A program made the translations under genes and the position numbers. Below, in pieces: positions 1,941-34,701 of a stretch of 64,000 nt of DNA (the first letter of the stretch is position 1; the number at the start of each line of letters is the position of its first letter). The DNA is from a virus: positions 32,001-96,000 of IMG/VR virus record IMGVR_UViG_3300027793_000055. One strand, given 5' to 3'. Under the pieces are notes generated by a model that was not told the origin of the DNA, made no database searches, and saw only the letters and a program-made list of their open reading frames with translations.

Positions 1941-3221
1941 TCAACCAGTGAATATGACCATTGGTACTTTATCGATTGTTTTTTGAACATTCTCGCCAAT
2001 ATTAGCAGTTTGTTCAGCTAATTTATCATAAGTCATTTCTGCCAAGATAGTTTTCATTTCTTCGCGGAGAGCAGTCATTTCTTCTTTTGCTTGAGCTAGT
2101 AAAGAATCAGCATTTAATTTAACACTTTCTCCTGGAATTGGAACACTATCAAACTTGCCACGAATCTGTCCTAACATCTCTTTACAAATTGCAAGAGCAA
2201 AACGTCGAATCCACTGTTTACCAATTGAGTTTATATTTTCATATGGAATGTTGGTAAAAGGAAGTGTATTAATATTATTAACACCACCGGCTCTATCACT
2301 TTGAGTCGATGCTGAGCCACTTGGACCTGATTCACCATAACTAAACACACCTTGTGGAATAGTAAATTCAATCCAGATTGACTGTAAATCTGTGCCGGTT
2401 GGAATAGGAAACATTCGCAATTTATTATTTCTAATCTCATAAGAATAATGTGAGATACGTGTATAAATATTATCTTCATAAGCCATCGCTTGTGCTTTGT
2501 TGTGCCAAGCAGGAATAACTTCAAATGTGCTATCATCAGCAAATTGACCATAAGTACTTAAATTACCTACAGTATTTATACCACCATAATATCCATAGAA
2601 TCTCCACATAGCTCTTGGAGACTTATAATAAACTTTTCTTACTTCTACTTTTTTATCAATTAAACCAGCAAAAGGAGAACCGGGTATCTGACTGGCAGTT
2701 ACTAATGCAGTCTGAACATCATAGTCTTGTTGATCTCCCACAATTGGTATTGAAGCTGAAAATACTGTTAAATTACCGCCTACTCCTGCCATTTCAGACG
2801 TTCTTGTCATAACTTCTTTTGCATAACCAATATCAAAAGACGGTAATAATAGTTGTGGATTTTGCCCAGCTAATGCACTACCAGAAGAAAATTCACCATC
2901 ACTATTAAAAGTACCAGTTGGTGAGCCAAGAGAGTTAGCCAACACATTTCTTGATTGATGAACGTTGATTATATAACTGTATTCCAATACAGCTGCTTCA
3001 TAAGCTGCGTATACATTTTGTTCAGTTAACTCTATATCAAGTACATCGCCACCAAGCATTTTATATGTAAATGCAACCTGATCAACAGCGCCAGTTATAA
3101 AATCAGAATTTGTTGCATATATACCAAAAGGTAAACTAGCAGTAACACGACTAGCTGTACCAATAGCCGGTAATACAATTGCACTTATTTGACTTTTTGG
3201 TGCTAATACAGGTAATGCCAT
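1941..3221 (-). CDS. Neck/head-tail adaptor (gp13-like)
   Basis: LGG-x-VLDIELT, C-terminal WIRRFALAICKEMLGQIRGKF...LN...L; synteny. Confidence 0.65.
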   Translation of the reverse strand: MALPVLAPKSQISAIVLPAIGTASRVTASLPFGIYATNSDFITGAVDQVAFTYKMLGGDVLDIELTEQNVYAAYEAAVLEYSYIINVHQSRNVLANSLGSPTGTFNSDGEFSSGSALAGQNPQLLLPSFDIGYAKEVMTRTSEMAGVGGNLTVFSASIPIVGDQQDYDVQTALVTASQIPGSPFAGLIDKKVEVRKVYYKSPRAMWRFYGYYGGINTVGNLSTYGQFADDSTFEVIPAWHNKAQAMAYEDNIYTRISHYSYEIRNNKLRMFPIPTGTDLQSIWIEFTIPQGVFSYGESGPSGSASTQSDRAGGVNNINTLPFTNIPYENINSIGKQWIRRFALAICKEMLGQIRGKFDSVPIPGESVKLNADSLLAQAKEEMTALREEMKTILAEMTYDKLAEQTANIGENVQKTIDKVPMVIFTG

Positions 3222-3247: not shown

Positions 3248-3255
3248 TAAATAGT
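3248..3255 (-). promoter_or_regulatory. ACTATTTA motif upstream of neck genes
   Basis: 14 nt downstream of the 33-bp terminator repeat. Confidence 0.6.
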
Positions 3256-3268
3256 TTTAATATTTATT

Positions 3269-3301
3269 AAAAACAAAACCCACCATATTTCAGGTGGGTT
3301 T
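3269..3301 (-). terminator. Intrinsic terminator, 33-bp direct repeat copy 1
   Basis: AAACCCACC-TGAAATAT-GGTGGGTTT-TGTTTTT; identical at 4837 and 6259. Confidence 0.85.
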
Positions 3302-3320
3302 ATAAATTTATTATCTTCTA

Positions 3321-4778
3321 TCAAACACCAGTTGTTGGATGTGAATCTGGCGGTGTAAAGTTTGTTGTATATCTTGCGATACCTTGAGTCAGCCTAAGAT
3401 CATCAATATAACCATTTAAATATCTCAAAGCACTATTGCTTCTATGAAAACCAACATAAAAAGTTGTAGGAAGTGTAGCTATAGAAGAAGCTAAACTTGA
3501 GCCTCTTAATATACCATTAATAAATAATCTCACAGTTGTTCCATCATTAGAAAGTGCAACATGGTTCCAACTGTTTAGAGAAACAAGACCGGCAGCCGTT
3601 GCGAATTGCCATATTGGAGTTTGAGAGTTTCCAAATCCATTTGCTGTCATACTTCCATTTAAATTTACAGCTAATTGAACTCTATTGATATTTGATGTTG
3701 TGGTGCCATTATAAAATAAACCACTACCATTTGTAGCATCTCCATAAGAATTAAGATAAAACCAGGTTTCTATAGTATAAGAGCCGCTTAGTTTAAGGTT
3801 TGAATTACTAAGAGAAAGATAATCGTTAGTTCCGTCAAAATAAGCACTACCAGTGATTGCTGTTACGATATTAGCAAGTGGCGACACGTCGCTGATTTGC
3901 GGTGAACCACGTCCTATTGTTATTGAATAGTTATTAGGTCCGTTGTCCTTGAATATACGTCCCTGGCAAGTTAATAATATCGTTCCAGAAATAGATTGTA
4001 GTGCAGTGGTTGGCGGGGAGAATGCAGACGTATAAACAGAAGTTCCACAAATTCTTAGATTTGATAGGTGGCAGTCGGTTCTGCCATAGTCGCCTCCGTT
4101 GGGATTTGGTGTTGAACCACCAATTGTGATGCTTTCTGCTGTTCCGTTATTTAACGGTGTATTAAATACTTCTTGTAACTCCAATACTCCATCTACAAAT
4201 ATTCTGTAAGTTGTACCTTGTTTGACAAAGGCTAGATGGTGCCAGTTGCCGTCATCTACGCGAGAAACAGAAAAGAATGACTTAATATTGACCGGCCATC
4301 CCGTACCGTGATACACGGTAAAATAAAACTTACCAACGTTGGTTCCAGACTCCATCACGCTGGCCACCCAAGAATTTCCTGTATCAGAATGCATGTCTGA
4401 TTTTGCCGCTATAGTAGCTCGCTGGGAATTAGAACTGCCACGGAACCATGTTTCAAATGTCCAATTTGTTCCTATATTTCCACCAACGATAGCGCCGTTG
4501 ACTAGTAGATAGTTTTTCCTTATGCTATCGGCTTGTGATGGAAAATAAATGCTCCATTTACCATCTTCTTTATTGTGCGGACTAAATGAGTCAATCCGGG
4601 TATTACCAAACCTTGAGATGGCAAGATTATTAACACTGCTGTCAACAAAAGTTGTGCTATTGTTAGCCCCGGCTGCTTTCAATAATAGTGATACATTTGA
4701 AAAATAAGGATCGGTTGTTGGAATATTTGTAGGCTCACTGCCAGTTGTTTGATTTTCTGCTTCACTATAAAAAAACAT
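3321..4778 (-). CDS. MFFY-leader protein with two LamG/concanavalin-like domains
   Basis: DPYFSNVSLLL, WTFETW, WHHLAFVK, WNHVAL, GYIDDLRLTQGIARYTTNFTPP. Confidence 0.85.
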   Translation of the reverse strand: MFFYSEAENQTTGSEPTNIPTTDPYFSNVSLLLKAAGANNSTTFVDSSVNNLAISRFGNTRIDSFSPHNKEDGKWSIYFPSQADSIRKNYLLVNGAIVGGNIGTNWTFETWFRGSSNSQRATIAAKSDMHSDTGNSWVASVMESGTNVGKFYFTVYHGTGWPVNIKSFFSVSRVDDGNWHHLAFVKQGTTYRIFVDGVLELQEVFNTPLNNGTAESITIGGSTPNPNGGDYGRTDCHLSNLRICGTSVYTSAFSPPTTALQSISGTILLTCQGRIFKDNGPNNYSITIGRGSPQISDVSPLANIVTAITGSAYFDGTNDYLSLSNSNLKLSGSYTIETWFYLNSYGDATNGSGLFYNGTTTSNINRVQLAVNLNGSMTANGFGNSQTPIWQFATAAGLVSLNSWNHVALSNDGTTVRLFINGILRGSSLASSIATLPTTFYVGFHRSNSALRYLNGYIDDLRLTQGIARYTTNFTPPDSHPTTGV

Positions 4779-4815
4779 CTTTTATTTCTCCTGTCATTGA
4801 AGATAAATATAGATA

Positions 4816-4823
4816 TAAATAGT
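4816..4823 (-). promoter_or_regulatory. ACTATTTA motif of LamG cassette
   Basis: Between the terminator repeat and GACAGGAG RBS. Confidence 0.6.
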
Positions 4824-4836
4824 TTTAGAATAATTC

Positions 4837-4869
4837 AAAAACAAAACCCACCATATTTCAGGTGGGTTT
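4837..4869 (-). terminator. Intrinsic terminator, 33-bp direct repeat copy 2
   Basis: Identical to 3269-3301. Confidence 0.85.
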
Positions 4870-4892
4870 GTGTTGGTAATTATACTTACTGT

Positions 4893-6197
4893 TTATTCTT
4901 CATTGAATACATAAGCAAGACCAGACTCATTGCCGCTTGTTGATTTTTCATCTCTCCACGCACCAACGATAACACGATCACCGGCAGAATTCATTGCAAC
5001 TGAATATCCAAACTGATCATCATTGGTTGCCAAACTTCCACTTAGGATAGGCTGCTGCTGTGTCCAGCCGGTTGTTCCACTAACAAATATATAAGCAAGA
5101 CCAGAAGAACCAACTCCACCACTACCAGTTATTTCGTCTAGACGAGCACCAACAATGATACGATCACCGGCAGAATTCATTGCAACAGACCAACCAAACC
5201 AATCATCAGTATTATTTGCAAAAGTTCCGCTTATGATGGGTTGTTGTGACCAACCACCAGTTCCACTTACAAATACATAAGCAAGACCTTCGTTGTAATT
5301 AGTTGCTTGGCTAACTCTTTCATCCAAATATGCACCAACAACAACACGATCACCAGCAGAATTCATCGCAACTGAATTACCAAATTGTTCATTGGAACTA
5401 GTTGCCAAGGTGCCACTTAGAACATGCTGCTGAGTCCAGCCACCAGTTCCACTTACAAATATATAGGCAAGACCTTCTGAGAGAGGGCCTCCGCTTCTTT
5501 CATCTTGCCCAGCACCAACGATAACACGATCACCAGCTGAATTCATTGCAACTGAATTACCGAATTGATCAGTTGAATTAACTGCTAAAGTTCCACTTAA
5601 TATATGTTGCTCTACCCATCCACTTGCTCCACTGACATATATATAAGCAAGTCCTTCTGAAATCTGGCCACCACTTCTTTCATCCAATTGGGCACCAACA
5701 ATAATACGATCACCTACGGAATTCATTGCAACTGCACTACCGAATTGATCACTAGTAGTTGCAAAAGTTCCGGTTGGGATAAGTTGTTGTGACCAACCAC
5801 CGGCTCCGCTGACGAATACATAAGCAAGACCTTGTGTGATGCTGGCTGGTCCCAATTCATCTAGCCGAGCACCAATAACAACACGATCACCAGCAGAATT
5901 CATTGCAACTGAATTGCCAAAATTATCATTTAAATCTATTGCAAAACTTCCACTTAGAACAATTTGTTCATTCCACCCACCGGTTCCACTAACATATATA
6001 TAAGCAAGCCCAGAAGAACCACTTCCGCCACTTCTTTCATCTTGCCACGCACCAACGATAACACGATCACCGGCAGAATTCATTGCAACTGAATATCCAA
6101 AATTGTCAGTTAAATCGGTTGCCAAAGTACCAGATAAAATCTGCTTTTCTTTCCAATTTTTTATTATATTTTCAATTATTTCTCTATAAAAAAACAT
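4893..6197 (-). CDS. MFFY-leader protein, 7-bladed FG-GAP beta-propeller
   Basis: Seven repeats of FG-x-SVAMNSAGDR-x-(I/V)-VGA...GLAY(I/V)(Y/F). Confidence 0.85.
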   Translation of the reverse strand: MFFYREIIENIIKNWKEKQILSGTLATDLTDNFGYSVAMNSAGDRVIVGAWQDERSGGSGSSGLAYIYVSGTGGWNEQIVLSGSFAIDLNDNFGNSVAMNSAGDRVVIGARLDELGPASITQGLAYVFVSGAGGWSQQLIPTGTFATTSDQFGSAVAMNSVGDRIIVGAQLDERSGGQISEGLAYIYVSGASGWVEQHILSGTLAVNSTDQFGNSVAMNSAGDRVIVGAGQDERSGGPLSEGLAYIFVSGTGGWTQQHVLSGTLATSSNEQFGNSVAMNSAGDRVVVGAYLDERVSQATNYNEGLAYVFVSGTGGWSQQPIISGTFANNTDDWFGWSVAMNSAGDRIIVGARLDEITGSGGVGSSGLAYIFVSGTTGWTQQQPILSGSLATNDDQFGYSVAMNSAGDRVIVGAWRDEKSTSGNESGLAYVFNEE

Positions 6198-6235
6198 CTT
6201 TTGTATCCCATCCTTTACTAGCTTATTAGTAAGTG

Positions 6236-6243
6236 TAAATAGT
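6236..6243 (-). promoter_or_regulatory. ACTATTTA motif of FG-GAP cassette
   Basis: Downstream of terminator copy 3. Confidence 0.6.
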
Positions 6244-6258
6244 TTTGTAATAGTTTAA

Positions 6259-6291
6259 AAAAACAAAACCCACCATATTTCAGGTGGGTTT
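6259..6291 (-). terminator. Intrinsic terminator, 33-bp direct repeat copy 3
   Basis: Identical to 3269-3301. Confidence 0.85.
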
Positions 6292-6310
6292 AAAAAATTA
6301 TTATCTTCTA

Positions 6311-6410
6311 TCAAGCACCAGCTACTTTTAACAATAACGATACACTTATAAAATATGTATCGGGTATGACTACTGATTAAATTGGGTCTGCTGCTTCACT
6401 ATGAATGCAC
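6311..6410 (-). pseudogene. Remnant of an MFFY-LamG cassette gene
   Basis: Translates SEAADPI*SVVIPDTYFISVSLLLKVAGA*, matching the N-terminus of 3321..4778 (38/50 nt by eye), joined to the same stop/3' flank. Confidence 0.75.
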
Positions 6411-6416
6411 CTAAAT

Positions 6417-7082
6417 TTAGGCAATTTCATATCTAATAATTACAATACCAGATGCTCCAGCACCACCATTTTTACTATAGTATCGATGCCCCCATCGATC
6501 TCGTTCTCCACCGCCACCACCAGCGCCAGTATTTGCAATTCCAGGGAATCCAAATGAAGCTAGGCCACCACGACCACCGCCGCCAAGACCACCATTAGCA
6601 TTGCCACCAGCACCACCACCACCAGCATAATATTTTAAAGTTCCATCTATAGATGATTGTAAACCATTAATACCACCACTTGCGCCTACGCCGTTGATCT
6701 GATTCCTCGCTGAACCTTTAAAGGCACCGCCAGCGGCAGTAATATTAAAAGCCGATGATGGATTGCCAGAAGTTACAGAAAATCCACCAACAATTATCGG
6801 ATAAGATTGAGCAGCTAAAATTATAGAGCCGCTAATCATTTGACCGGCATCGCCACCATTACCATCATACTTACCAAGAATTCCACCAACAGACCCCTCA
6901 AAACCTCTACCACCACCGCCGCCGCCGCCAATAATCAAATATTCAACTAATCCCGAATATTCAATTGTTAAAGTACCATTTTGTAAAAATCTATGAACTC
7001 TGTAGGTTTTTCCATCAAGTGAAAATTGTTCAGTTATTCCACCACTACCTTCTAAAAATTCTGCTTCGCCATAAAAAAACAT
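6417..7082 (-). CDS. MFFY-leader glycine-rich virion protein
   Basis: YRVHRF, VEYLIIGGGGGGG, YYAGGGGAG, ANTGAGGGGG, GASGIVIIRY. Confidence 0.8.
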   Translation of the reverse strand: MFFYGEAEFLEGSGGITEQFSLDGKTYRVHRFLQNGTLTIEYSGLVEYLIIGGGGGGGRGFEGSVGGILGKYDGNGGDAGQMISGSIILAAQSYPIIVGGFSVTSGNPSSAFNITAAGGAFKGSARNQINGVGASGGINGLQSSIDGTLKYYAGGGGAGGNANGGLGGGGRGGLASFGFPGIANTGAGGGGGERDRWGHRYYSKNGGAGASGIVIIRYEIA

Positions 7083-7120
7083 ATTTAGTGTCTCCTGTCG
7101 TCCAACGACAAATACAGATA

Positions 7121-7128
7121 TAAATAGT
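7121..7128 (-). promoter_or_regulatory. ACTATTTA motif of Gly-rich cassette
   Basis: Context AAAACTATTTATATCT-x-TATTT shared with the 4816 site; GACAGGAG RBS. Confidence 0.6.
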
Positions 7129-7140
7129 TTTAAAATTTAT

Positions 7141-7169
7141 AAAACAAAACCCGCCATTTCTGGCGGGTT
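7141..7169 (-). terminator. Terminator after major capsid gene (variant of the repeat)
   Basis: AACCCGCCA-GAAA-TGGCGGGTT-TTGTTTT. Confidence 0.85.
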
Positions 7170-7196: not shown

Positions 7197-8915
7197 TCAG
7201 CCCAAGAGATCTTGAACAACAACTAGACCGAACATATCTGGACGTACCATCTTCTTAGCGTAACGGGTCATAACGCCTTTACGTGGTACGAAGTCTTCGG
7301 TACCAAAGATGGTTGGTGTGACTTGGAGTGGTACGTATGGAGCGTAGACATATCCGCTTTCGAGGAATTGTGTACCACGACGACCAACTAGCAACAAGTT
7401 ACGTGGGAAGTATGGGTCAACCATAACATCCCATTTCTTGCTGAGTGAACCAACTTTAACTGCACCGGCTGTGCCCTTGGCTTCATCTGGAACAACACCT
7501 GAAGCACGGAAGCCAGCAGTCATTTCGAGGATACTGGCAACTTCTGGTGAAGTTACGATAAAGTTAGCACCACCACGTAATGTTTTACGGTGGATTTGAG
7601 CACTTAGATCATTAACGGTTTCGAGTAGTGTTTCGTACCACATTGAAACGTTACCGGTAAAGTCTGCACCAAGTAGATCTTCATTTGCTGAAGCACTGAT
7701 TGGAGCACCAGTTGCTTTGTTGACAAAGCGACCTGGACGACGTGACCAGTGATAAACACCGGCTGTAGCGCCTTTAACGAGGTCTTCTAGGACTTCTTGG
7801 TCGATTTCAAGAGCGATGTGCTCGCTCATGATGCTTGTCAATTCGACTTCGGCGTCGAGATTGTGGTAAGCATTTAGATCTTGACCGAGTTCTGGTGTCC
7901 ACTTGACTTTGAGTTTTTTGGTTTTGGCACTAACTGAAACTGAATCAATTTTTACATCGATTTCTGGAATTTCAGAACTACCTTCAAGACCCCAAAGTTG
8001 TTGTGCTAATACAGAACCTAGAGCACCACCAACACCTAGATTATCATCTATTGGGAAGGTTATAGATTTAGTACCACTTGTTAATTCAGTTTGTAAAGCA
8101 CCAAGAACAGCTGCACTGTTTGCTTTAAATACTAAACGCAAATGAGTATAAGTATCACCACCAACATCGGCACCGCTAGCATCGCACTTAGCAGTTAAAC
8201 GACGTACTTGTGTACCATTTGTGACTGCAGTTGTAACTTTGATAGCAACTAGATTGCTCTTGTTTAGTTTTTGGCCACCAACTTCTAGTGAAGCTACTGG
8301 AACAACAACAGCAATAACACCGTCTGAACCTGAAACTAGATCTGGATCGAAACGTAGAGCACGATCAAGTGCTGGATCAGCACCAACTAATTGACCACCA
8401 CCAAGTACCGAGGTCAATGAGGCAGTTACTGAACCGGTTGGTGAGCTATAACCGTTGTTTAAGCTGTAGAATGATTTTTCGAGGTTAACACCAGTTAAAT
8501 CAACGCCGCCTGTGATTTGGCTAGCAACACGACCACCACCAAATACTGAATCATTTGCATCTAGACCTAAACGGCTTCCGCTGACTTGGAAGTCAAGGAA
8601 GAAGATTAGACCGCTTGGTAGACTCATTGGTTGTACTGAAACAAGTTCATTGGCAATCAATGAACCGAATACACGGCGAACGATTGGGAATGCAACAGCT
8701 GCGAAACCTTCAACGTCACCAGCACTCATTGCACTACTTTCTTTGAGTAGTTGTTTGGCTTGGTTTTCCAATAGAACGGCCATACCATTCTTTTGGCTCT
8801 CATCACGAAGACCTTCTAATAGACCGGTCTTTTCCCATTTTGCACGTAGAGCGGCACCTTCTTTTGTAAGGTCACGGTCAACGATATTCTCTGTTAAACG
8901 CTTTAAAATTGACAT
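7197..8915 (-). CDS. gp23: Major capsid protein (gp23-like) with central insertion
   Basis: AFPIVRRVF, VSVQPMSLPSGLIFFLDF, LK..WTPELGQDL.AYH, GYVYAPYVPL, TRYAKKMVRP. Confidence 0.95.
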   Translation of the reverse strand: MSILKRLTENIVDRDLTKEGAALRAKWEKTGLLEGLRDESQKNGMAVLLENQAKQLLKESSAMSAGDVEGFAAVAFPIVRRVFGSLIANELVSVQPMSLPSGLIFFLDFQVSGSRLGLDANDSVFGGGRVASQITGGVDLTGVNLEKSFYSLNNGYSSPTGSVTASLTSVLGGGQLVGADPALDRALRFDPDLVSGSDGVIAVVVPVASLEVGGQKLNKSNLVAIKVTTAVTNGTQVRRLTAKCDASGADVGGDTYTHLRLVFKANSAAVLGALQTELTSGTKSITFPIDDNLGVGGALGSVLAQQLWGLEGSSEIPEIDVKIDSVSVSAKTKKLKVKWTPELGQDLNAYHNLDAEVELTSIMSEHIALEIDQEVLEDLVKGATAGVYHWSRRPGRFVNKATGAPISASANEDLLGADFTGNVSMWYETLLETVNDLSAQIHRKTLRGGANFIVTSPEVASILEMTAGFRASGVVPDEAKGTAGAVKVGSLSKKWDVMVDPYFPRNLLLVGRRGTQFLESGYVYAPYVPLQVTPTIFGTEDFVPRKGVMTRYAKKMVRPDMFGLVVVQDLLG

Positions 8916-15470: not shown

Positions 15471-16070
15471 TCAATCAATTATATCATTAATGAGTCTGAC
15501 TAGTTTATCGCTCTTTGTCATCTCAGCAGGCTTTTTTGCTTCGCTTAAGTTAAGGAAGGCACCTTTTGTAGACGGTTCAGATACTATATCAAAACAAATA
15601 AGTTGTAAATCATCTTCTACAATTGTTTTGCCTTGTGATTCTCTAACTGAACCAAGTGCTCTTGAAGAAATGCCAAGTGTTACACCATTGCTAATAAGTG
15701 CTTTTAAAATATTACCAGCTGGTGTATCTAATATTTTTAATTTACCCATAACATCTTTTCCATTCCACCAAACATCTGTTACAATGTGTGAAACGTTTTT
15801 AAGATTAATTACTGAATCATCAGGATGATCCAACTCACCAACAGCACGATTTTGAGCAATTATATTTTTATAGTTTTCTATTTCTCTCTCAAGTGTCTTT
15901 TGTGGATAAACGCGACCATTACCATTTTGTGCATCTGCTCTTTGCATAACACCTGTTAAGAAAAAAGCCTTTTGTTCACGAACAAGTGTTTTTTCACTTT
16001 CGGTTAATAAGTCTTCACATTTACCACCATCACAAAGTTGGTAGAATTCTCTTAAAACATATTTACTCAT
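15471..16070 (-). CDS. gp21: Prohead core protease (gp21-like)
   Basis: NGNGRVYP, GELDHP, GISSRALGS, ICFDIVSEPST.GAF. Confidence 0.92.
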   Translation of the reverse strand: MSKYVLREFYQLCDGGKCEDLLTESEKTLVREQKAFFLTGVMQRADAQNGNGRVYPQKTLEREIENYKNIIAQNRAVGELDHPDDSVINLKNVSHIVTDVWWNGKDVMGKLKILDTPAGNILKALISNGVTLGISSRALGSVRESQGKTIVEDDLQLICFDIVSEPSTKGAFLNLSEAKKPAEMTKSDKLVRLINDIID

Positions 16071-22987: not shown

Positions 22988-23020
22988 TAAAAAACCCAAC
23001 TATTTTAAATAGTTGGGTTT
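22988..23020 (-). terminator. Hairpin terminator containing the promoter motif
   Basis: 12-bp stem AAACCCAACTAT/ATAGTTGGGTTT followed by T run; includes ACTATTTA. Confidence 0.7.
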
Positions 23021-28540: not shown

Positions 28541-29200
28541 TCAGAAATCCTTTAAAGTATTCAAAATCAAACTTGCTTTTTCTTTTTTTCTTTTAAAGCC
28601 CAAGTCATCTTCAAAAGCATAAAGATAATTTATAAGTTTCAGGCTATCTTTTTGATTTGTGATTCTTATTTGTGAATAAGAGGACTTTTGTTTTTTTACT
28701 CTTCTAATAGAATATTTAATATTTAAGTTTTTATATATATTTTCCAAAAAAGTCCAATCTTGTTCGTATGTACTTGTTGCTGTACACTGGACTGCTTTAC
28801 TGATATTATTAAAATAGAAGCAGCCATCACCATCCCAATATCCTCTTAACCAATAATTTTTTAAATTATCTGGTATTTTTTGTAAAATTTTATCCGCACT
28901 TGCATATGATTTTTTATCATAATCGTTATTTTTCAAAAACATTGAAAATTCTTTATTAGATATGTGGTAAACCATTTGCGGTTTCCAGTCTTCTCTATTG
29001 CGATATCTTATATTCCATTCTCCGGTATCTAGAAAAACTTTTCTTAAAGATTCTATATCCTCTTTAACACTCTCTAGAGAAATCATATTACCGCACATTG
29101 AGCCATCTGCCCATAGTAGACCGAGAATATAGCAAGTATATTCATTGATATTGTCTGTAAACAGATTGTTTTTAATATTATTAATTTTTTGTTTCGGCAT
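28541..29200 (-). CDS. Double-motif LAGLIDADG homing endonuclease
   Basis: YILGLLWADGSM and WLRGYWDGDGCF. Confidence 0.9.
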   Translation of the reverse strand: MPKQKINNIKNNLFTDNINEYTCYILGLLWADGSMCGNMISLESVKEDIESLRKVFLDTGEWNIRYRNREDWKPQMVYHISNKEFSMFLKNNDYDKKSYASADKILQKIPDNLKNYWLRGYWDGDGCFYFNNISKAVQCTATSTYEQDWTFLENIYKNLNIKYSIRRVKKQKSSYSQIRITNQKDSLKLINYLYAFEDDLGFKRKKEKASLILNTLKDF

Positions 29201-29251: not shown

Positions 29252-29905
29252 TTATTTTTTAATCCAACCCTGTTCAATATACAATGGTAGCTCTTCTTCG
29301 TCAATCTCTTTTTCTTCTATGCTCATTTCTTGAACAACCTGAAATGTCTTGTGGATATCGCCAGCCATTACATAATCGTGACCAGTAAAAGCAGAAATAT
29401 CATGATCACCATGATCCATAACATATCCCATATCTGTTAGAACACCAGATACAGAGCCGTGATAAAGAGCAATATTGATCTTTGATGGATCACTAATTTT
29501 CTGCCAATTTCCTTCATCAAAAATAGAAAGAACATTAAGAGTAATTTGTTCACTAATAGATACTTCACCTGAATCTTTTAAAAGATGAAGTTGGTTGTGT
29601 TGTAATGCTTGTACAATTGGTGTAATTGCATCCTGACGACCGCCATTTTTAAGGTTACCGTCGTGATTACCCAATAAGACATATGTGGGTGCAATATCTG
29701 CCAGATTCTTAAGGAATTCTGTTGCAAGTTCAAAGAATTCTGGACTTAATTGTGTTTTGGTATGTGCAATATCACCACAATGAACAATATAATCTACTTT
29801 TTGTTCACGTAGCTTGCTATAAATTTGTGAGAAAATCTCACGATATTCTTTATGAAATTTTAGGTTTCTTATGTGGGTGTCCGATAGATGGCAGATCTTA
29901 ATCAT
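29252..29905 (-). CDS. sbcD: SbcD/Mre11 nuclease, N-terminal fragment
   Basis: HLSDTH, GDIAH, GNHD, YHG, GDIHK metallophosphoesterase motifs. Confidence 0.9.
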   Translation of the reverse strand: MIKICHLSDTHIRNLKFHKEYREIFSQIYSKLREQKVDYIVHCGDIAHTKTQLSPEFFELATEFLKNLADIAPTYVLLGNHDGNLKNGGRQDAITPIVQALQHNQLHLLKDSGEVSISEQITLNVLSIFDEGNWQKISDPSKINIALYHGSVSGVLTDMGYVMDHGDHDISAFTGHDYVMAGDIHKTFQVVQEMSIEEKEIDEEELPLYIEQGWIKK

Positions 29906-30605
29906 CTTTTCTCCATATTTTATTATTTACAATATTCGAAATATTTGTGGCACAAGTATCAAAAATTAATGCTATATCTTTTAGCATCATTCCTTCTTTC
30001 GCCAATCTTCTTATTTCTTCTACTTTTTCCCAATTCAATTTAGAATGAGGGTTTTTTTCACCTTTTTTGCCATTACTGATTTTTATTTTTGTTTCTTCGC
30101 TTCTCTTACCTGTTGAATAAATTCCTTTTTTACCTTTATTCCAAGGAATTTGTCCTTTTTTAAATTTTGTTTTTATTTTATTTTTATGTTCGTCTGTTAG
30201 ATTTTTACCTTTATTCCAAGGATCCTTACCGAACATTCCATTATTTTCTACTACTTTCCCTTCTGAAATTATCTTTTTTGTTTCTTCGCTATGTTTTCCA
30301 TAAGAACCACCACCTTTTAGATTAAAACCTTTATCTAAATTTCTTGTTTCATAAAATATTATGAATCTATCTTCTTCTTCATCTAATTCTTTTTTGGAAT
30401 AACATTCTTTTAATATTTCCCACTCAAAATTTTCAATTCCATATTTTTTTATGGCGCTGTGAAAATAGTCATATTTAGGATTTTTACTTGCGTGTTTATG
30501 TTCGGAAACTCTTCTTGCTAAATGTTTAACGGTTTGTCCTATATAAAGTCTTCCGTCTATTTTTAAAGTTGCTTTATAAATTATTCCATATATTAATTTG
30601 CTCAT
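29898..30605 (-). CDS. GIY-YIG homing endonuclease with NUMOD3 repeats and C-terminal HTH
   Basis: GIIY...YIGQT, HSEETK, PWNKGK x2. Confidence 0.9.
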   Translation of the reverse strand: MSKLIYGIIYKATLKIDGRLYIGQTVKHLARRVSEHKHASKNPKYDYFHSAIKKYGIENFEWEILKECYSKKELDEEEDRFIIFYETRNLDKGFNLKGGGSYGKHSEETKKIISEGKVVENNGMFGKDPWNKGKNLTDEHKNKIKTKFKKGQIPWNKGKKGIYSTGKRSEETKIKISNGKKGEKNPHSKLNWEKVEEIRRLAKEGMMLKDIALIFDTCATNISNIVNNKIWRKDD

Positions 30606-30662: not shown

Positions 30663-31601
30663 TTAAATCACCAACTTGAATGCTTTTTGAATAAACGAGT
30701 CTTGTGTCATTAGGGTTGCTCGTTTTTTACGACGTGAAAATTCAAGTGTTGACATTTCACCAACATCTTTATACCCCGTCACGTCTATCTTGTAAAGTTC
30801 TACATCATACGACATTAAACTACGAATAAGGTAGTTTGTCTTTCTCTCTGCATCTGGATCTAGTGCAATATAGATCGGAGTATCATGTTTTGTTATTTCC
30901 TGAAATAGTTTAGAATCTTCTCTAAGAGTTGAACCTAATATTGGTACGGCGTTGCCTGCTTTAATGGCATCAAATACTCCTTCGACCAATACAAGATCAC
31001 TTTTCCAGTCAATAAACAAATCATTAAAAATAATATCTTTGCTTGTTGCTGGATTCATATAATTGGGTCTTTCTCCTGTATATGAGCGGGCAATAAAATA
31101 ATTGCAATATCCTTCACGATTAAAAGAAGGTACAATTATTCTATTTTTGTACATACCTTCCTTGCAATAGCCAATTTTCCAGCGAACAATATCTTCTTTT
31201 TCTAGGCCACGCTGTTGTAGGTATTTTAAAGGTTCTCTAGAAGAAAATGGTAAATTGTTATTTGCTAATGAAATAAATTCTTTTGGTAAAGAAATATGAC
31301 TTTCTTCTATCTTCTTGGTTGGAAAAAGAATATCTACAAGTGATTGGCTGATTTCTACTTCACCAGTTAAAGTTTCCCAAGTATGTTTTTGAGAAAAATT
31401 ACCATATTTACGAACTAATCTGCTTAGATTTGTGCCTTTATAATTGCAAAGCCAACATTTAAATACATTTTTTTGAATATTGACAGAAAGTTTTTTCTTT
31501 TCACTTTTACACTTTGGGCAGTAAAAAAGTAATTCCCCACCTTGTCGGAGGGGATTACCTAAAATATCAACTAAGATCTGCTGTTTCTGTTCTTGTGACA
31601 T
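30663..31601 (-). CDS. dnaG: DNA primase (DnaG/gp61-like)
   Basis: CPKC..C..C zinc finger, RIIVP, LVEGVFDAI, ALDPDA TOPRIM. Confidence 0.88.
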   Translation of the reverse strand: MSQEQKQQILVDILGNPLRQGGELLFYCPKCKSEKKKLSVNIQKNVFKCWLCNYKGTNLSRLVRKYGNFSQKHTWETLTGEVEISQSLVDILFPTKKIEESHISLPKEFISLANNNLPFSSREPLKYLQQRGLEKEDIVRWKIGYCKEGMYKNRIIVPSFNREGYCNYFIARSYTGERPNYMNPATSKDIIFNDLFIDWKSDLVLVEGVFDAIKAGNAVPILGSTLREDSKLFQEITKHDTPIYIALDPDAERKTNYLIRSLMSYDVELYKIDVTGYKDVGEMSTLEFSRRKKRATLMTQDSFIQKAFKLVI

Positions 31602-31666: not shown

Positions 31667-31993
31667 TTAGGCAGGAAATCCTCGACCTTCAATTTCTATT
31701 TCTAATTGGACACCACTTCCGGAAACTACCAAAGTATCAGTCAGATCTAAAAAACCACTATACGATAGAGTAAAACCTGCCGTTAATGGATCTCCAAAAA
31801 ATATTAAATTTGGGTTATCAATAGAAAAACCTGGATTACCAATACTGGCAATTGCCGTGAAGCCTTCGCCTTCCGGTACGTTGAGTGCTTGAACACTAAA
31901 AAAAACTGAAGAACCGGCATTTATTGTTGCTGTTGATGGTGTTATTACTAATTCAACCGGTTGCTGTGTTTCTATAGATCGATAAAAAAACAT
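31667..31993 (-). CDS. MFFY-leader small beta-sandwich (Ig-like) protein
   Basis: LVITPSTATI.AGSSV.FSVQ pattern. Confidence 0.6.
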   Translation of the reverse strand: MFFYRSIETQQPVELVITPSTATINAGSSVFFSVQALNVPEGEGFTAIASIGNPGFSIDNPNLIFFGDPLTAGFTLSYSGFLDLTDTLVVSGSGVQLEIEIEGRGFPA

Positions 31994-32010
31994 ATTATAT
32001 ACCCCATTTT
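31982..32010. repeat. 29-bp gene-junction repeat copy 1
   Basis: KWGI-stop-T-ATG-FFY junction; 28/29 identical to 32718-32746. Confidence 0.75.
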
Positions 32011-32729
32011 GTTGACAAGGCAGACACTAGTGCTGATTCGTTAGCCGGAACAGATGGATATACAACGAAATCATGTATAATACCATCAAAGTATCTATAT
32101 GCACTACTCCCTACGAACATTTTTGCTGCCGGAAATCCTCCGCTGGCACTTGTATTTTTTTCTGTATAGCTATTATTATTTAGTGCTATACCAACCTTAC
32201 CTGATTTTAATCTGGCACGTAATAATATTTTTGTCGCTAGCGGGATTGGAGTAGATGCACTATTTGGATAGTTATTTGCATCAGCATATGATATACTACC
32301 ACTAGTGTACAATAATAACCCAGCCCAACCAGAACTAGTTTGCCATATGCCACCATTTGTATATGCGCCTTCGCCGGCAAAATTAACACCCGTACCCGCA
32401 GTCTGTGATAGTGTAGAGTTAACAGTAACAACCGTCGCAACATACCATTCAGTATTGCTGCCACGGAAGTCTCGGTTAGCAATTTCCATAAAATCATTTC
32501 TTGCTATATCGGGATCTAAAGTGAATGTAACGCCTGCGGGACTACTACTATGTGTTGGTCGTTTGAAAGAACCAGGTTGTACAATAGAAGATGTTATAGT
32601 CCCGGTGCTGGCCCAACTGCTCACCGCTCCATTTGCAGTAGTAATAGTGGCGATATCGCTACTATCATAACGATAAGTATATCCTGTAGGCAATGGAGAT
32701 GGCGCACTTACTTGTCTATAAAAAAACAT
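31995..32729 (-). CDS. MFFY-leader LamG-like protein
   Basis: YRYDSSD..TIT...G.VSSW, FDGIIHDFVVY, C-terminal KWGI. Confidence 0.7.
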   Translation of the reverse strand: MFFYRQVSAPSPLPTGYTYRYDSSDIATITTANGAVSSWASTGTITSSIVQPGSFKRPTHSSSPAGVTFTLDPDIARNDFMEIANRDFRGSNTEWYVATVVTVNSTLSQTAGTGVNFAGEGAYTNGGIWQTSSGWAGLLLYTSGSISYADANNYPNSASTPIPLATKILLRARLKSGKVGIALNNNSYTEKNTSASGGFPAAKMFVGSSAYRYFDGIIHDFVVYPSVPANESALVSALSTKWGI

Positions 32730-32746
32730 ATTATATACTCCATTTT
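32718..32746. repeat. 29-bp gene-junction repeat copy 2
   Basis: KWSI-stop-T-ATG-FFY. Confidence 0.75.
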
Positions 32747-33486
32747 GCTTTTAGATAGTCGGTCCACAAAACTCTTCTATCATCTGCAAGATCATCAGAG
32801 AATACAACAATTTCGTGAATAGAGCCACTTAGACTTCCGGCTCCAGACCAGTTGCCTGCTATTTCTGTTTTCCAGCCAGACGACAAAAGTGTATTTCCTG
32901 CTGCGCGAGAAACAAAAGTTCCACCATTTACTGCGACAGAAACGGAAGTACCAGTTGCCTTGCCTTCTACCAATATTTTAGTATTTAAATTTACCCCTGC
33001 GGCAGAAATGGTTTTGTGAGTACCATCATATACATGTGCTTGTGCAACTCTTGTAGTACCGCTTAGTGCCAAATAAATGCCACCATATTGGGCAAAAGCA
33101 AATATTTGATGATTACTGTAAGCATTAACATCACTTCTTGTAATATTGGCTGGATTTACAATGGCAAACATATGCCAATTTGGAGTTGATAAATTTGGAG
33201 CCGTTGTTCCTAAACGCATATAGTAAGCAATATTACTACCACTAAAGTATCTAATTGAATTACTTGTTGCTTCATATATTGGAGCATTAGTAGTATTTCC
33301 TGCACCCGGTGTTGCACTTGAAGTATTGATACCGGTACTGGCCCAACTGATTACTTTATTTGGCACCCCGTTATGAGTTGTCGTGGTTATAGATGAGATA
33401 TCGGATGCATCAAATATATACCTTGCAGAATCACTTGGACGTTCTGGGCCGGCTAATAGATTTTCTCTATAAAAAAATATACCCAT
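32731..33486 (-). CDS. MGIFFY-leader LamG-like protein
   Basis: FDASDISSIT, GSIHEIVVF, YLKAKWSI; paralogue of 31995..32729. Confidence 0.7.
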   Translation of the reverse strand: MGIFFYRENLLAGPERPSDSARYIFDASDISSITTTTHNGVPNKVISWASTGINTSSATPGAGNTTNAPIYEATSNSIRYFSGSNIAYYMRLGTTAPNLSTPNWHMFAIVNPANITRSDVNAYSNHQIFAFAQYGGIYLALSGTTRVAQAHVYDGTHKTISAAGVNLNTKILVEGKATGTSVSVAVNGGTFVSRAAGNTLLSSGWKTEIAGNWSGAGSLSGSIHEIVVFSDDLADDRRVLWTDYLKAKWSI

Positions 33487-34443: not shown

Positions 34444-34701
34444 TTATATATTTGGCCAGGAGCCAGATTCAAATTCTTCTGCAAGCAACACCGAACCAGT
34501 AAAAGTTGGATAAACCAGAGATGCCGTGTTATAGGTTCCATTCCAAGTTGGTTGTTCAAACGCTTCTAAAATTAAAGCAGATTCTGTAAAAGTTGGATAA
34601 ACTAGCGATGCCGTGTTATAGGTTCCATTCCAAGTTGGTTGTTCAAATTCTTCGCTAAATAATAATTTTAAAAGATTTTGTCTATAAAAAAATAAACCCA
34701 T
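34444..34701 (-). CDS. MGLFFY-leader 85-aa repeat protein
   Basis: Two 29-aa repeats plus a partial third. Confidence 0.7.
   Translation of the reverse strand: MGLFFYRQNLLKLLFSEEFEQPTWNGTYNTASLVYPTFTESALILEAFEQPTWNGTYNTASLVYPTFTGSVLLAEEFESGSWPNI
34500..34647. repeat. 87-bp-period tandem repeat
   Basis: 34500-34560 is near-identical to 34587-34647. Confidence 0.9.

Follow-up and report, generated by a model that had tools for sequence, protein, structure and literature searches.

A hairpin-punctuated array of cassette genes between the capsid and neck genes of an uncultured T4-like phage

The array between the capsid and neck genes

The window analysed here is a stretch of 64,000 nucleotides (nt), bases 32001-96000 of the 187,750-bp IMG/VR contig IMGVR_UViG_3300027793_000055, which belongs to an uncultured T4-like phage. 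The contig has 34% G+C, is rated complete by CheckV and carries nearly all of its genes on the minus strand. Between the genes for the major capsid protein (MCP) and a neck protein, the window holds an array of three cassette genes and the remnant of another, punctuated by a repeated block composed of a terminator-like hairpin and a promoter-like motif. The upstream anchor of the array is an MCP of the T4 gp23 family, 572 amino acids (aa) in length (7197-8915, minus strand; Pfam Gp23, E 7e-69). The downstream anchor is a neck protein of 426 aa (1941-3221, minus strand), homologous to T4 gp13 according to a PDB sequence match (9mkb, 9lu4; E 2e-5) and matching the PHROG family of head-tail adaptor Ad2. 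Read along the minus strand, the order is gp23 MCP, glycine-rich gene, fossil cassette, FG-GAP gene, double-LamG gene and gp13-like neck gene. Genes for the large terminase, the portal and a gp21-type prohead protease (15471-16070) lie upstream of the MCP gene. The MCP is 34-50% identical to those of its nearest cultured relatives (Flavobacterium phage immuto, Rhodothermus phage RM378 and Microcystis phage Mel-JY01), and a megablast of the locus against cultured phages gave no match.

All three cassette proteins begin with MFFY, in the form M-F-F-Y-x-E, and continue into different folds. The first, P0003 (221 aa, leader MFFYGE; 6417-7082, minus strand), consists of a TNF-like and glycine-rich adhesin domain (Pfam Gly_rich_2, PF21722; E 8e-11). 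Its AlphaFold2 (AF2) model has a pLDDT of 92, with residues 1-10 disordered, and the best Foldseek match is the tail fibre of cyanophage Pam3 (7ypx_A; E 5e-5, probability 1.0, TM 0.48), with further structural matches to Bxb1 tail-tip proteins. The model displays the TNF-like sandwich and glycine-rich lattice of a Gly_rich_2 or Pam3 gp24-type tip. A tblastn search of cultured phages with P0003 gave no match, and PDB sequence searches with P0001 and P0003 were empty or insignificant. Close homologues of the glycine-rich protein retain MFFY, and in distant ones the domain is joined to different N-terminal modules.

The second cassette protein (434 aa, leader MFFYRE; 4893-6197, minus strand) is a beta-propeller of seven FG-GAP repeats (Pfam FG-GAP_2, E 1e-54, seven stretches) encoded by seven DNA repeats of ~180 bp each, and an orthologue with 66% identity occupies the same locus in three relatives, L022, L024 and L091. 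The third (485 aa, leader MFFYSE; 3321-4778, minus strand) is composed of an S/T/P-rich linker and two concanavalin-A-like (LamG) domains (Pfam Laminin_G_3, E 1e-33, two stretches). It matches PHROG families of virion structural and baseplate wedge proteins, and its cyanophage homologues are annotated as virion structural proteins. The cargo of the array most likely consists of virion-exposed adhesins or accessory receptor-binding proteins. Between the glycine-rich and FG-GAP genes lies a fossil cassette (6292-6416, minus strand), recognised by its alignment with the LamG gene at both the 5' and the 3' end. Codons ~4-38 of a LamG-type MFFY gene are fused to its last ~30 nt at a GCTGGTGCT-like microhomology and are followed by a copy of the repeat described below; stops are present, and the ATG and its own terminator-promoter block are lost. 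This is a former fourth cassette, destroyed by internal microhomology deletion.

The repeat, termed T, was delimited by repeat comparison and folding as three identical blocks of 33 nt on the minus strand, at 6259-6291 (hairpin 6266-6291), 4837-4869 (hairpin 4844-4869) and 3269-3301 (hairpin 3276-3301), with start-to-start distances of 1568 and 1422 bp. On the coding strand its 26-nt hairpin core has a 9-bp stem and an 8-nt loop, followed by UUUUGUUUUU, at -15 to -17 kcal/mol. The terminator hairpin of the MCP gene, T' (7148-7169, minus strand; stem CCCGCC/GGCGGG, loop AGAAAT; -23.6 kcal/mol, z -5.5, with a U-tract after it), differs from T by A>G / T>C changes that compensate each other in the stem and by having 2 nt fewer in the loop, and the same variant lies 3' of the MCP gene in relatives L091, L032 and L021. 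All four minus-strand hairpins fold as intrinsic terminators (-15 to -24 kcal/mol) followed by a U-tract. Shuffled versions of the window held no match to T. In a search of all 187,750 bp the T 26-mer, exact or with up to 3 mismatches, occurs at just three sites, all at the array, and among the 21 intergenic minus-strand terminators found by a scan for hairpins with a T-tract, all besides the T copies differ in sequence. An Rfam scan of T returned just sub-threshold chance matches, so T is not a known RNA family.

Two further occurrences of the hairpin are recorded here. The exact 26-nt T hairpin is found once in an unrelated 258-kb viral contig (L084, 3003-3028), where it overlaps the stop of a 178-aa open reading frame (ORF) and its surroundings hold neither a T-tract nor the late motif nor an MFFY gene; with 26 nt, the match is much too long to be due to chance. 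In addition, a version with a reverse-complement loop (ATGTTTCA) is present in L022, L024 and L028, ~630-660 bp past the MCP stop and before the first MFFY cassette.

Each hairpin is followed after 15-19 nt by the motif AAAACTATTTA, which occurs four times in the window (0.34 expected), always on the minus strand and 27-39 nt upstream of the next ATG. The copies lie at 7121-7131 (39 nt before the glycine-rich ATG), 6236-6246 (39 nt before the FG-GAP gene), 4816-4826 (38 nt before the LamG gene) and 3248-3258 (27 nt before the neck gene). This arrangement had been outlined in an initial annotation made from the sequence alone, which placed the genes in this order between capsid and neck, described three T copies identical at 33 of 33 positions starting at 3269, 4837 and 6259 with the spacing given above, regarded T' as a variant of T and placed the promoter motif after each. 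The gene order is borne out by the ORFs, the Pfam matches and the gp13 match, and the repeats by a script check; the related hairpin at 7148-7169 agrees with the description of T', and the genome-wide reuse of the terminator, which would have made its identity non-specific, does not occur.

The heptamer CTATTTA is the top enriched oriented 7-mer of the genome's intergenic DNA. It stands 19-40 nt before the ATGs of many structural-module genes, as a single element with no fixed -35 and with variable upstream spacing. Across 63 relatives whose MCPs are 57-92% identical, CTAWTTA lies within 70 nt upstream of the neck gene in 51. The motif is read here as a putative phage late promoter, which would be the genome's general late-type signal. 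A candidate for the factor that reads it is a 254-aa ORF outside the window (L097:1282-2046, genome 106094-106858), whose sole family match is PHROG phrog_234, the gp55 late-sigma family (E 3e-9 and 7e-8); a search of the genome with the single sequence of T4 gp55 gave no match. An early sigma70 promoter of the kind found in promoter-early stem-loop (PeSL) cassettes was considered at the repeats and rejected, since the sites from a generic sigma70 consensus scan were not enriched (16, with 21.2 expected) and none of them lay at the four blocks.

A separate class of sigma70-type sites, CTTGAC-N17-TGnTAnnAT, is present elsewhere in the genome before other genes, for example ahead of the gene at 30663-31601. 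Genome-wide, CTTGAC precedes genes at fourteen sites, most of them sigma70-type with an extended -10, in G+C-rich islands. They are probably early promoters, and they suggest a host with canonical sigma70 promoters, not Bacteroidota-type ones, though the nearest cultured relative infects Flavobacterium. Three other terminator hairpins hold CTATTTA within their stem or loop (22992-23020 in the window; genome 135712-135741 and 176920-176941 outside it), an overlap that resembles some PeSL subclasses. Furthermore, many cassettes have a 5-bp hairpin with a 3-nt loop directly upstream of the Shine-Dalgarno sequence (~7097-7109, minus strand, in the window; also in L032, L085, L091 and L005). Its sequence varies among lineages with the pairing kept (GTCGT/ACGAC, GTCAC/GTGAC, GCTGA/TCAGC, GTTCA/TGAAC), and it may act as a 5' stabiliser or translational element.

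Variation among relatives and positions of the joints

Searches of IMG/VR with the MCP found homologues in 186 stretches and gave 80 loci, 63 of them with a non-redundant MCP-neck interval. The interval in these 63 relatives spans 98 to 5665 bp and holds 0 to 5 cassettes in differing orders. It is empty, at 160 bp or less, in 22 relatives (shortest 98 bp), measures 161-700 bp in 16 and 701-2000 bp in 11, and exceeds 2000 bp in the remaining 14 (longest 5665 bp). A fixed gene set at this place, named in the initial annotation as the outcome that would speak against shuffling, is not what the relatives display. The empty sites of L086 and L090, 106 bp long, contain the identical 26-nt hairpin together with the motif, so the repeated block is the native capsid terminator plus neck promoter. 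Between one and five MFFY[SRGA]E cassettes are present in 13 relatives, with the motif 30-42 nt upstream. In L026 and L089 the cassettes follow the order LamG, Gly-rich, LamG, LamG, LamG; L091 has LamG and FG-GAP, and in L093 the Gly-rich gene adjoins the neck gene. The cultured relatives immuto (L094) and Mel-JY01 (L095) carry PhoH and hypothetical genes in the same interval, which indicates that the hotspot is old and also accepts auxiliary metabolic genes.

The joints at which content changes were located in three pairs of close relatives. L004 and L007 share 99.8% identity in the final 603 nt of the MCP gene, and 98.1% identity once a point ~10 nt ahead of the last hairpin is reached. The 1.5 kb between is unrelated apart from the first ~45 nt of coding sequence; the joints fall at the MCP stop, the leader and T. 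The sequences of L022 and L028 are 94% identical as far as the hairpin that follows the first LamG cassette, and again starting at the one that precedes the neck gene. Between these hairpins a 1.4-kb FG-GAP cassette is swapped for a 4-kb gene (1280 aa), with both joints in the hairpin. In the third pair, L091 differs from L022 by a 631-bp insertion directly 3' of the MCP gene. The cassettes had been proposed to be self-contained units shuffled by recombination between repeats, and these swaps and insertions of whole cassettes in near-identical pairs support that proposal.

On average, the 95-nt upstream blocks of one array resemble each other more closely (0.65-0.87 per array; 0.87 in L089, 0.76 here) than they resemble the blocks of other arrays (0.71 +/- 0.06), and the cargo proteins of one array are only 30-50% identical or unrelated. 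Similar blocks combined with diverged cargo are the pattern that repeated exchange or conversion between blocks would give. Across clades whose MCPs are ~65% identical, the 26-nt T hairpin keeps its exact sequence, the 8-nt loop included, and it is identical between genomes whose flanks are only ~75% identical; hairpin stems across relatives otherwise show ordinary compensatory drift. According to a quick tree of the MCPs, two clades carry the MFFY cassettes and the T-type hairpins, one formed by the window's phage with L004-L007 and the other by L021-L032, and they are absent from L008-L014, the sister of the window's clade. Cassette loss in this sister clade is as possible as gain by transfer. 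The identity of the 26-nt hairpin between the two MFFY clades points to selection on the hairpin sequence.

With regards to machinery, the genome encodes a RecA/UvsX-family recombinase (E 3e-32) as well as SbcCD. A search of the complete 187.7-kb genome for tyrosine and serine recombinases (PF00589 and PF00239) gave no match, with positive controls. A GIY-YIG-type homing endonuclease gene (29898-30605) lies directly upstream of a short SbcD-like ORF (29252-29905), and a separate ORF of 'endonuclease' type is found at 28541-29200; the SbcD gene may have been split or invaded.

The MFFY leader and readings of the array

The leader MFFY[SRGA]E is present on 17 distinct cassette proteins from the window and its relatives, which are otherwise unrelated. 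The corresponding coding start, ATG TTT TTT TAT AGT GAA, is almost invariant across lineages and the 5' untranslated region (UTR) varies. Conservation of the first 18 coding nt next to a variable UTR implies that the leader is selected in its own right. The possibility that it is kept solely as part of a DNA homology block was rejected, on the grounds that the UTR varies where the coding start is constant and that FFY genes without the block exist. Four such FFY-leader genes (MFFYRQ, MFFYRS, MGIFFYRE and MGLFFYRQ) lie outside the array, just downstream of tail-fibre genes. Two are MFFY genes of 244 aa (31995-32729, minus strand) and 108 aa (31667-31993, minus strand), which abut each other, have no Pfam or PHROG match and appear LamG-like and Ig-like by eye. 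The other two carry leader variants, one of 251 aa starting MGIFFYRE (32731-33486, minus strand) and one of 85 aa starting MGLFFYRQ (34444-34701). No terminator-promoter block separates the three adjacent FFY-leader genes near the tail fibres. The shared, disordered FFY leader probably docks the cargo at one common site on the particle.

Taken together, we consider it probable that the MCP-neck gap holds late-expressed cassettes for virion adhesins in a hyperplastic array, and that these are shuffled through homologous recombination of the terminator-promoter blocks, which may extend into the leader. The empty form of the gap, as observed in relatives, measures ~100 bp and holds the capsid-gene terminator T and the putative CTATTTA late promoter of the neck operon. 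In this phage the block stands in four reiterated copies, each framing one self-contained unit made up of a putative late promoter, a short 5' UTR with a Shine-Dalgarno sequence, the M-F-F-Y-x-E leader, a variable binding domain and terminator T. The variable domain is a glycine-rich fibre-tip, FG-GAP propeller or LamG lectin fold. The blocks (33 nt identical, 60-100 nt similar, plus the first 18 coding nt) would act as portable homology for general phage recombination. Exchange within a genome or between co-infecting relatives could then delete, duplicate, insert or replace whole cassettes, leaving the essential flanks untouched.

Several points weigh against this reading. The activities of promoter, terminator and recombination are all deduced from sequence. 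The (A)CTATTTA motif departs from the T4 late consensus TATAAATA, which itself has no comparable placement before genes here, and the gp55-family match is weak (34 bits), with the phrog_234 profile also matching host genomes in a control search. Six conserved leader residues are short for a stable docking element. The fossil was made by microhomology deletion within a gene, not by exchange between T copies, and illegitimate events thus also shape the array. Lastly, there is no support for the FG-GAP cassette having recently passed between the two MFFY clades by horizontal transfer, as the cassette, with 74.5% nucleotide identity, is no more similar than its flanks (77% and 69%); being as diverged as they are, it gives no evidence of recent movement.

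A bolder version of the same account goes further on each element. The FFY leader would be a universal plug, docking any domain at one virion site, and the array a dedicated plug-and-play system by which adhesins and host range are diversified. Instead of offering passive homology, the conserved hairpin would be an active hotspot, cut or stalled by SbcCD or a similar enzyme, and the whole an integron-like analogue built from transcription signals and general recombination. In this complete form the proposal is doubtful.

The array can also be viewed as an internal-protein locus, in which MFFYxE would be a capsid-targeting sequence like those of T4 IPI-III, bringing the cargo into the prohead core and removed by a gp21-type prohead protease that cuts after the invariant Glu. 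Phage DNA and cargo would then enter the host together, the proteins serving in host takeover or in anti-defence. The T-even internal-protein (IP) loci, as presented in PMC2839356, PMC3012670 and PMC9026906, share the layout of hypervariable genes with a short common leader and flanks of promoter and stem-loop. The leader is disordered, its fourth residue is Tyr and its sixth, in the cassettes, is an invariant Glu; gp21-type proteases cleave after Glu (PMC9026906), the gp21-like protease at 15471-16070 is available for this, and the array adjoins head genes. Against this stand the cargo folds, which are of an extracellular-binding type, P0003 resembling the receptor-binding tips of tail fibres and the LamG relatives being annotated as virion structural or baseplate proteins. 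Moreover, the other FFY genes are neighbours of tail-fibre genes, and in two of them position 6 is taken by Gln or Ser in place of Glu. The P0003 fold and this tail-fibre neighbourhood argue against capsid targeting, and the internal-protein explanation is, in our judgement, unlikely.

It is likewise improbable that the repeats are transcriptional punctuation only, required because strongly expressed late genes each depend on a strong terminator and promoter, marking a permissive site for illegitimate insertions and arising as a by-product of local duplication without serving as an exchange substrate. Such an explanation would accommodate the cargo without MFFY or T found in relatives (PhoH in immuto and Mel-JY01, lipoprotein-like genes in L073), the origin of the fossil by microhomology deletion and the unrelated terminators of deeper clades. 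It does not sit well with the joints of three independent close pairs, which fall at the hairpin, MCP stop or leader and not at random positions, nor with a 26-nt hairpin that stays identical where the flanks are only ~75% identical. Regulatory blocks that in most arrays are more alike than between arrays, on cargo that is far diverged, speak against it too. Very improbable, finally, is a hairpin-directed, site-specific exchange that would start at the hairpin itself and not through plain homology, T acting either like attC or as the target of a nuclease, for instance SbcCD or an enzyme like endonuclease VII cutting a cruciform: exact conservation of hairpin and loop across clades with ~65% MCP identity, the inverted-loop version in L022, L024 and L028, the 26-mer in the unrelated contig L084 and the presence of SbcCD, a palindrome-specific nuclease, are in its favour, but the genome has no tyrosine or serine recombinase, stems drift in the ordinary compensatory way and joints also fall in the leader and at the MCP stop, although the present data do not separate hairpin-directed from homology-driven exchange.

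Comparison with known systems

The closest precedent for homologous exchange between such blocks is found in the PeSL cassettes of the T4-type phages RB49/phi1, PST and nt-1 (Arbiol et al., 2010, PMC2839356; Comeau et al., 2014, PMC4122927). PeSLs are terminator-promoter blocks that mediate modular shuffling, for which mini-circles have been shown experimentally (PMC2839356, PMC4122927). Both systems occur in T4-like myoviruses and reiterate blocks of terminator hairpin and promoter between non-essential genes with no dedicated recombinase, and in both the blocks give homology for insertion, deletion or replacement of single genes between close relatives. The four blocks described here are likewise intergenic composites of stem-loop terminator and promoter, and in three pairs of relatives the joints of indels or replacements lie at these elements (hairpin, MCP stop or leader). 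They differ in that PeSL promoters are sigma70-like early promoters with -35 and -10 elements, whereas the blocks here carry a single, late-type CTATTTA element. PeSLs are scattered through the hyperplastic regions at ~50 sites, where they precede small ORFans, whereas the present repeats form one locus-specific family between gp23 and gp13. In addition, homology here reaches into a shared coding leader, and the cargo consists of large adhesin-like proteins.

The IP loci of T-even phages (Repoila et al., 1994, via PMC2839356, PMC3012670 and PMC9026906) are treated as PeSL-like analogues in the PeSL literature (PMC2839356, PMC4122927). They share with the array a confined locus, many alternative genes, a common short N-terminal leader and flanks of promoter and stem-loop that are thought to mediate and confine shuffling. 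A short, conserved N-terminal leader on otherwise unrelated proteins is a feature of the present cassettes as well. IP leaders, however, are capsid-targeting propeptides of 10-19 residues on small, basic, injected proteins, whereas MFFYxE is found on lectin, propeller and fibre-tip folds that are more likely to lie outside the particle.

The initial annotation had likened the array to an integron without an integrase. Both have tandem single-gene cassettes with a repeated hairpin-forming site between them, varying in number and order among relatives. The lack of an IntI tyrosine recombinase, and of tyrosine or serine recombinases in general, stands. The rest is analogy only, because each cassette has its own promoter, where integron cassettes are promoterless and read from a single shared Pc, and because the repeated element is not attC but a Rho-independent terminator; PeSL-type shuffling is the right precedent. 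As for the promoter, the array has in common with T4-type late transcription that late or structural genes are preceded by one -10-like element and no -35; the motif is (A)CTATTTA, however, and not TATAAATA.

Among fibre tips, P0003 has the same TNF-like and glycine-rich fold as Pam3 gp24 (PDB 7ypx), and the Pfam family Gly_rich_2 is common to it, Pam3 gp24 and gp38 of Salmonella phage S16. In Pam3 the TNF-like/glycine-rich part makes up the distal end that recognises the receptor, and docking to the baseplate is the task of a separate helical domain at the N-terminus (PMC9608196). The mode of attachment differs, as Pam3 gp24 docks by an N-terminal helical bundle and S16 gp38 by three short helices, whereas P0003 has only its 10-residue disordered MFFY leader. 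If this leader is indeed a docking tag, phages could change their adhesion targets without disturbing essential genes, and the tag would offer a natural display handle for phage engineering.

Repeat-mediated modular shuffling was known before from early, non-structural ORFans of T4-type coliphages and vibriophages. The settings that are new here are late promoters, the conserved head-neck core and a large uncultured clade of distant T4-like phages. On the best reading, the array is a late, structural counterpart of PeSL cassettes and of the T-even IP loci.

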